Assembly: GCF_003334765.1 (NCBI RefSeq)
Contig: NZ_QOWT01000132.1
Length of the DNA stretch: 350 nucleotides
Strand: one strand, 5' to 3'
DNA from: Escherichia coli
GTDB taxonomy: Bacteria > Pseudomonadota > Gammaproteobacteria > Enterobacterales > Enterobacteriaceae
Shown piece after piece: positions 1 to 350 of the stretch. How positions within the stretch are numbered: position 1 is the first letter of the stretch; each line of letters opens with the position of its first letter. The notes beneath the pieces were generated by a model. The model made no database searches. It worked only from the letters and a program-made list of their open reading frames with translations, and was not told where the DNA came from. The translations under genes and the position numbers were made by a program.

Positions 1-350
1 TTTGCAGGTGTACGATAAGACCAGGCGGCTTCGTAAAGCAGACGTCTCAGTTCGCTGTTTCCAACTTTTGTTATTCCCCTGGGACGAATGCTGTTTCCAC
101 TGGAATATTCCCCTGGAACCAGTCCCAGAAAAGCCATGAGTTGTTTGGGACTGGAAAATCGTGAAAAATCACCCAGTTCAGCAACCAGGGTTATTGCGGT
201 TAGCTGACCAACACCTTTAAGGGCCTGTAACTGGCAGACCAGATTGCACAGAGACCACTCAGGTAACAGGCGGGATATTTCCTGGTCGAGTTGAAGTATG
301 CGATCTTCAATCTGCTCCAGACTCTGACAATAGTGTTGAAAAGCAATCTG
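1..350 (-). CDS. IS110-family transposase/recombinase, internal fragment covering the linker and C-terminal Transposase_20 (Tnp) domain; partial at both 5' and 3' ends
   Basis: Minus-strand frame with first codon base at window position 350 is open for all 116 codons. Translation contains LKGVGQLTAITLVAELGDFSRF, QLMAFLGLVPGEYSSG and ITKVGNSELRRLLYEAAW, which match the conserved pattern of the IS110-family Tnp domain (Pfam Transposase_20, PF02371) as I recall it. The other five frames are not comparably open or motif-bearing. No start or stop codon of this gene lies in the window. Confidence 0.88.
54..63. repeat. Exact 10-bp direct repeat gctgtttcca (second copy at 90-99)
   Basis: Identical 10-mers at 54-63 and 90-99. 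On the minus strand both encode Gly-Asn-Ser (ggaaacagc), giving the peptide pattern SGNS ... VGNS. Confidence 0.6.
72..82. repeat. Exact 11-bp direct repeat tattcccctgg (second copy at 106-116)
   Basis: Identical 11-mers at 72-82 and 106-116 on the plus strand, both inside the CDS (encoding PRGI and PGEY on the minus strand). Confidence 0.6.
264..323 (-). other. Predicted alpha-helical/coiled-coil linker segment between the N-terminal DEDD domain and the Tnp domain
   Basis: Peptide SLEQIEDRILQLDQEISRLL (codons 10-29) is rich in Leu/Ile/Glu/Gln with heptad-like spacing, and sits immediately upstream of the Tnp-domain motifs, where IS110-family proteins have a helical linker. Based on composition only. 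Confidence 0.45.

Follow-up and report, generated by a model that had tools for sequence, protein, structure and literature searches.

Does a short glycine-containing peptide, LKGVGQLTAITLVAELG, encoded in a 350-nucleotide stretch of Escherichia coli DNA (contig NZ_QOWT01000132.1; this whole stretch is called the window), form a motif of the helix-hairpin-helix (HhH) type, and which nucleic acid would such a motif serve? The window is an internal fragment of a known E. coli gene for an IS110-family RNA-guided transposase, or bridge recombinase, that of the element ISEc45. An initial annotation made from the sequence alone had described the peptide as a non-specific DNA-binding motif of the HhH type at the start of the IS110 Tnp domain. 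The explanation favoured here, with a probability of roughly 0.7, is that a conserved HhH-like element opens the Tnp (Nop-like) domain of the ISEc45 RNA-guided recombinase, and that LKGVGQLTAITLVAELG provides its turn and its second helix.

The identity of the gene is secure. All 350 bases of the window match, at 100% identity, a coding sequence (CDS) annotated as 'IS110-like element ISEc45 family transposase', and of 5,426 complete E. coli genomes 1,255 carry a gene with a 100% match to it. The CDS product in E. coli O104:H4 is the 377-amino-acid (aa) protein WP_000555380.1, of which the window covers residues 187-302 and LKGVGQLTAITLVAELG residues 230-246. The peptide comes from minus-strand translation of window 171-221. 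Its frame is the one annotated for the CDS and stays open, without a stop, through 116/116 window codons; the two remaining minus-strand frames are full of stops. On the plus strand the same segment translates to TQFSNQGYCG*LTNTFK, a reading that was ruled out because it contains a stop codon and gives a different peptide. Since only the minus strand gives LKGVGQLTAITLVAELG, the initial annotation had tacitly used the reverse complement. Plus-strand open reading frames of 39-45 aa in the window were dismissed as mechanical.

Family models place the window fragment in the same group. It matched Pfam Transposase_20 (PF02371) at E=1.6e-24 with the alignment beginning at model position 4, NCBIfam transpos_IS110 (NF033542, 'IS110 family RNA-guided transposase') at 4.8e-36 and, weakly and under the model cut-off, NCBIfam TIGR_Tas_endo at 1.3e-8, and its PDB matches were IS621 (2.4e-9), ISCro4 and TasR. 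The full protein carries D13, E64, D102 and D105 (the DEDD set of the RuvC-like domain, outside the window) together with S270; the DEDD columns are conserved and the ISEc45 homologs bear PF01548 as well as PF02371. The family assignment of the initial annotation is borne out by these matches, and so is its view that the segment is intact, the frame being open and every conserved residue present. The motif also lies where it had been placed, where the Tnp domain begins, from Pfam model position 4 onward and aligned with IPGIGEKTS of IS621; over its whole length LKGVGQLTAITLVAELG aligns with I-P-G-I-G-E-K-T-S-A-V-L-L-A-Y-I-G of that protein.

The extended HhH pattern hxxhxGhGxxxAxxhh occurs a single time in the 377-aa protein, starting at residue 227, and arose in 28 of 20,000 composition-preserving shuffles (0.14%), so that it is non-random. 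The tripeptide G-h-G alone appeared in 28% of the shuffles and has a second copy in the ISEc45 protein at residue 69, which makes 'GVG' uninformative by itself. In an alignment of 107 full-length ISEc45 relatives of 34-86% identity, the hairpin region retained L227 (92/107), R/K231 (100/107), G232 (105/107) and I/V233 (95/107), followed in helix alpha2 by A238 (98/107) and E244 (105/107) and by G246 (80/107). Conservation continued through the connector and the second hairpin, with R250 in 104/107, F251 in 105/107, G262 in 107/107 and P265 in 95/107, and farther on with G283 and R288 (each 107/107). Position 234, the second Gly of GVG, is Gly in 19 members of this clade, Asp, the commonest residue, in 34 and Ala in 20. 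Such variation is not disqualifying, because genuine HHH_3 members also vary there (PGVTRAVA, RGLSEKMA, DGINAAFL).

A search of viral contigs for related loci yielded members of this clade alone. A broader sample (n=18) took in IS621, ISCro4, TasR and 14 plasmid-borne elements gathered by tblastn on plasmids, among them IS1618, IS5075 and both Gram-positive and alphaproteobacterial representatives. It showed the more canonical form [K/P]-G-[I/V]-G-x-x-T-A, with the first Gly in 17/18 (the exception, IS5075, carries Cys), the second Gly in 14/18 and the Ala in 16/18. Judged from these alignments, the motif is conserved across the IS110 family, the conserved unit being G232, the hydrophobic residue after it and A238. 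The claim of family-wide conservation therefore stands for these three positions and falls for 'GVG' as the unit, the second Gly being kept in so few members of the clade.

Similarity to genuine HhH modules was found at the level of profiles. The templates for hhalign were PDB-derived sequences of six ComEA-type domains and two RuvA. Against the ComEA-type template, the ISEc45-clade profile scored 26.8 (probability 64%), the cross-clade profile (5 sequences) 41.0 (94%) and the broad family profile (18 sequences) 44.4 (95.8%); against RuvA the family profiles scored 31-33 (84%), and the positive control, ComEA-type (HHH_3) versus RuvA, gave 45.1 (96%). Reversed templates stayed at or below 17.8, and 150 column-shuffled templates reached at most 16.4-18.0. 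The aligned span, residues 224-266, is in register with the ComEA-type tandem module, (HhH)2: G232 falls opposite the first Gly of P-G-I-G, A238 and F251 opposite the conserved Ala and Phe respectively, L257 opposite the Leu of 'E-D-L', and G262 opposite the second hairpin's Gly. By segments, the turn QALKGVG falls on 'L-P-G-I-G' of genuine HhH motifs, the connector 246-253 on 'G-p-F' of ComEA-type domains and 'FGSLERF' of XPF, and in ComEA-type domains the second HhH helix and its hairpin are matched by helix alpha3 with G262-P265; the position of the last ComEA helix is taken in IS110 by the beta-hairpin with the catalytic serine.

Searches with individual models were consistent with this register. 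Pfam HHH_3 matched IS621 with an independent E-value (i-E) of 0.0025 (query 2-45 on positions 15-58 of the 65-position model, centred on P-G-I-G), and Pfam HHH matched it at 0.048, in register on P-G-I-G; the best HHH_3 value for one family member in the IS621/ISCro4 comparison was 6.4e-4. Among 75 members of the ISEc45 clade, Pfam returned 10 stray weak matches, 5 of them to models of HhH type (three HHH_3, one HHH and one T2SSK_1st). A HMMER profile of the ISEc45-clade domain, run against PDB sequences at E<=10, retrieved only IS621, ISCro4 and TasR and no HhH or Nop protein. The cross-clade profile retrieved TasH from the same database at 1.1e-4, and 4 of its 5 remaining matches were HhH domains, of XPF (E 0.26) and RuvA (E 0.6-1.1), in register. 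Transposase_20 presumably belongs to Pfam clan CL0198 (HHH). The label 'HhH-like' is defensible on sequence grounds.

The predicted structure has the corresponding shape. AlphaFold, run on the Tnp domain (residues 218-377) with a 75-sequence alignment, gave a model with a predicted local distance difference test (pLDDT) score of 96.1, in which DSSP assigns a helix at 221-227, a turn at 228-234 and a helix at 235-245. These are followed by a short 3-10 turn at 248-250, a helix at 254-261, a beta-hairpin whose strands (265-270 and 273-279) bear S270, a helix at 285-299 and three more helices. The isolated sub-domain, residues 218-300, was predicted with the same fold (pLDDT 90.3) and superimposed on experimental IS621 chains with a TM score of 0.75-0.80, the root-mean-square deviation (rmsd) being about 2 Å. 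In the model, two helices, presumably antiparallel, are thus joined by a short Gly-containing hairpin. Structure prediction, which the initial annotation had named as a check, accordingly shows a helix-turn-helix at LKGVGQLTAITLVAELG with pLDDT above 90, and the description of the peptide as an HhH-like hairpin with flanking helices agrees with the extended pattern, the conservation, the AlphaFold models and the in-register hhalign alignments alike. Fold searches with the predicted ISEc45 models returned no match to HhH DNA-binding domains, and no three-dimensional similarity to known HhH domains was seen; the model of the Tnp domain resembles Nop domains (Nop5/56/58, Prp31 and the Tas proteins). 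The two descriptions, (HhH)2-like at the level of sequence profiles and Nop-like at the level of the fold, are mutually compatible and not mutually exclusive.

Published work bears on the function of the domain. In IS621, S241 is the catalytic serine and Y264, M265 and M268 form a DNA wedge; the Tnp domain binds the backbone and conserved nucleotides of the bridge RNA, and touches target and donor DNA via the wedge and the S241 loop, and no structural relatives were reported (PMC11208158). The numbering of the IS621 PDB chains equals the native numbering +2, as checked on S241/G242/S243 and Y264/M265/M268. 'YSSG' of ISEc45 (268-271) aligns with 'YESG' of IS621, so that S270 corresponds to S241 and G271 to G242, and Y292, E293 and W296 align with the wedge residues. 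S270 is conserved in 97 of the 107 relatives and is Thr in the other 10 (S/T 107/107), and G271 is kept in 98. Threonine also replaces the catalytic serine in IS5075 (YSTGG), in a Shigella flexneri plasmid element and in a Variovorax element. The middle wedge position is acidic in ISEc45 (E293; wedge residues at window 21-35) and is kept so in 96/107 of the clade.

The Tnp domain has been identified as a Nop domain with an HHpred probability of 0.96 and 'three highly conserved glycine residues' (PMC11213020), which are plausibly G232, G262 and G283 of ISEc45. The Nop identification was also made in a study that reports one and the same binding site for box C/D-like motifs in Tas, IS110 and Nop5 (PMC12045711), and a mutational scan of IS622 ascribed bridge-RNA binding to the Tnp domain. 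In an engineering screen of IS621, E206P enhanced activity (PMC13396178). E206 directly follows P-G-I-G and is equivalent to Q235 of ISEc45 (window 204-206). A Pro after the hairpin is the canonical HhH 'GIGP', as in ComEA, RuvA, IS1618, TasR and TasH, and is recreated by IS621 E206P. In TasH, K180 and H182, just past the second hairpin, are needed to process the pre-tigRNA, and K167A in the loop after helix 2 had no effect. The term helix-hairpin-helix is not used in the structure, Nop and IS622 papers, and a search of a literature library for a link between IS110 or Transposase_20 and helix-hairpin-helix found nothing relevant. The non-specific DNA-binding role given in the initial annotation is not shown by any of these results. 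In the published record the domain binds bridge RNA, contributes a DNA wedge and carries the catalytic serine; the earlier inference was probably aimed at the wrong ligand.

These results suggest how the HhH-like element may work in ISEc45. Residues from about 224 to 266 would make up a degenerate (HhH)2-like sub-domain consisting of a helix, the G232 hairpin, a helix, a D-F-x-R-F connector, a helix and the G262 hairpin, with the beta-hairpin of the catalytic Ser270 directly after the second hairpin. The whole domain has the Nop fold common to TasR/TasH, Nop5/56/58 and Prp31, which in those systems is the guide-RNA-binding module. Gly232 may be what makes so tight a turn possible, and a nucleic-acid phosphate could be met by backbone amides at the N-terminus of helix 2 (T237, A238). 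Once the complex is assembled, the sugar-phosphate backbone bound there would more probably be that of bridge RNA or of an RNA-DNA duplex than that of free duplex DNA. The sub-domain may in addition serve as a scaffold that positions the Ser270 loop.

Several observations weigh against this explanation. The Pfam HHH models did not match ISEc45 even at E<=10, and the single HMMER matches to the HhH proteins XPF and RuvA are none of them individually significant. About one third of the ISEc45 clade has Asp in place of the second hairpin Gly, which is awkward if helix 2 is to bind phosphate with its N-terminus. The published texts on the IS621 and ISCro4 structures state no contacts for IS621 residues 201-209. 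Finally, hhalign against 3 and then 7 PDB Nop sequences gave a best score of only 17.6 (probability 3%) and so missed the published Tnp-Nop link, for which reason comparisons with small templates should not be over-read.

The same evidence can be set against other explanations of the motif. One takes it for a canonical HhH whose hairpin backbone holds duplex DNA non-specifically and which serves the transposase as its DNA-binding part. In favour of this are the sequence pattern, the profile similarity to (HhH)2 modules that bind DNA in ComEA, RuvA and XPF, and the DNA contacts documented for the Tnp domain of IS621. Those described are made by the wedge (Y264, M265, M268) and the serine loop, however, and not by the hairpin; in the published structures and the studies that followed them, the main role of the domain is to recognise bridge RNA, the fold searches found no HhH DNA-binding domain, and Asp is common at the N-cap position of helix 2 in the ISEc45 clade. 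Binding of free duplex DNA by the hairpin is quite unlikely on these grounds.

A purely structural helix-turn-helix, in which Gly232 and Ala238 would serve helix packing in a Nop-like fold and the likeness to HhH would be convergent and without any nucleic-acid contact, is also improbable, though not remote. The similarity to HhH covers 43-48 columns and both hairpins, includes the matching connector Phe and Leu and lies far above the shuffled and reversed hhalign controls; position 231 keeps a basic residue or Pro and position 237 Thr/Ser, as HhH motifs do, and the IS621 change E206P beside the hairpin alters activity. That G-V-G is a chance occurrence in coding sequence, without biological meaning, could be argued from the frequency of G-h-G in shuffles and its recurrence at residue 69; the rarity of the extended pattern speaks against it, and conservation of the motif across IS110 clades, TasR and TasH refutes it, leaving this reading with practically no probability. 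The HhH-like element of a Nop-like Tnp domain therefore remains the favoured explanation. A further step, that the N-terminal half of the IS110 Tnp/Nop guide-RNA-binding domain descends from an (HhH)2 module, with the catalytic-serine beta-hairpin inserted at its second hairpin in IS110 recombinases, is put forward tentatively, as an idea with rather less than an even chance.

The element can be compared with known systems. IS621 and ISCro4 (PDB 8WT6 and 9T56) share with ISEc45 the order of RuvC-like DEDD domain, coiled coil and Tnp domain, and their motif, catalytic Ser and wedge helix align with those of ISEc45, the sub-domain model superimposing at the rmsd given above; they differ in sequence (about 30-38% identity here) and in length (326 aa versus 377 aa in ISEc45), and the second hairpin Gly is usually replaced in the ISEc45 clade. 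The Nop domains of TasR/TasH, Nop5/Nop56/Nop58 and Prp31 (PF01798) differ from ISEc45 in that Nop and Tas proteins are without the catalytic serine, and Nop5-type proteins have V-G-P-x-L-G-A where IS110 has G-h-G-x-x-x-A. The (HhH)2 domains of ComEA, EEPD1 and Tex (HHH_3), RuvA domain II and the C-terminal part of XPF show in-register profile similarity over both hairpins and share with ISEc45 the conserved Ala, the connector Phe, the Leu of helix 4 and the order of secondary-structure elements. Unlike them, ISEc45 has the last HhH helix replaced or displaced by the catalytic-Ser beta-hairpin, and its element is part of a larger domain of seven helices without a fold-search match to theirs; the documented ligand of the Tnp domain is a guide RNA and not free duplex DNA.

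The features of the window are collected in Table 1. The boundary between coiled coil and Tnp domain was taken from IS621, where it lies at residue ~189 (PMC11208158), a position that aligns with about residue 218 of ISEc45.

Table 1. Features of the ISEc45 transposase fragment encoded in the window (residue numbers refer to the 377-aa protein).
Feature	Window position	Strand	Basis
ISEc45 transposase internal fragment, residues 187-302/377	1..350	-	WP_000555380.1 identity, Transposase_20
End of coiled coil (CC) before Tnp domain, residues 187-217	258..350	-	boundary inferred from IS621 alignment
Helix alpha1 of Tnp domain, residues 221-227, first HhH-like helix	228..248	-	AlphaFold DSSP; L227 92/107
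Hairpin turn, residues 228-234 (QALKGVG)	207..227	-	non-helical in both AlphaFold models; hhalign register
LKGVGQLTAITLVAELG, residues 230-246: turn end K231-G232-V233-G234, helix alpha2 (235-245), G246	171..221	-	translation, conservation, AlphaFold
Connector G246-D-F-S-R-F-S-S253, conserved D247, R250, F251	150..173	-	conservation, alignments
Helix alpha3 (254-261) and invariant G262-L-V-P265	114..149	-	conservation, hhalign, AlphaFold
Beta-hairpin, residues 265-279, catalytic serine S270 (codon 99-101)	72..116	-	IS621 alignment, AlphaFold strands
G283-N284 turn and helix alpha4 (285-299), invariant G283, R288	12..62	-	conservation, IS621 alignment, AlphaFold

The surroundings of the gene were also inspected. 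In the ISEc45 locus studied (L001), the CDS (L001:2275-3408) is directly flanked by pseudogene fragments of IS3-family transposases (L001:1726-2274 and L001:3472-3657), and many database 'partial' proteins (P0011-P0030) are read-through fusions of IS110 domains with PF13276 (HTH_21, IS3-type). The flanks and the fusions together suggest that ISEc45 has repeatedly come to lie inside or beside IS3-type elements. An Rfam 15 scan at the gathering score, on both strands of window 1-350 and of the ISEc45 locus L001 1-5350, gave no match, so that no curated model of bridge-RNA type matched near the ISEc45 gene.

The window carries little weight for a genome scan: it is an internal segment of an insertion sequence that is common in E. 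coli and already annotated. The motif itself, an ordinary conserved feature of the known domain of an annotated gene, was already known. What changes is the functional label, which should be that of a Nop-like guide-RNA-binding, catalytic-serine domain of an RNA-guided recombinase and not that of a generic DNA-binding HhH module. The (HhH)2 profile similarity, together with the activity-enhancing IS621 E206P beside the hairpin, may interest those who study the evolution or the engineering of bridge recombinases, although the similarity is still very preliminary. If descent from an (HhH)2 module were true, it would tie the guide-RNA-binding domains of the bridge-RNA, TIGR-Tas and box C/D systems to one of the oldest DNA/RNA-binding motifs.
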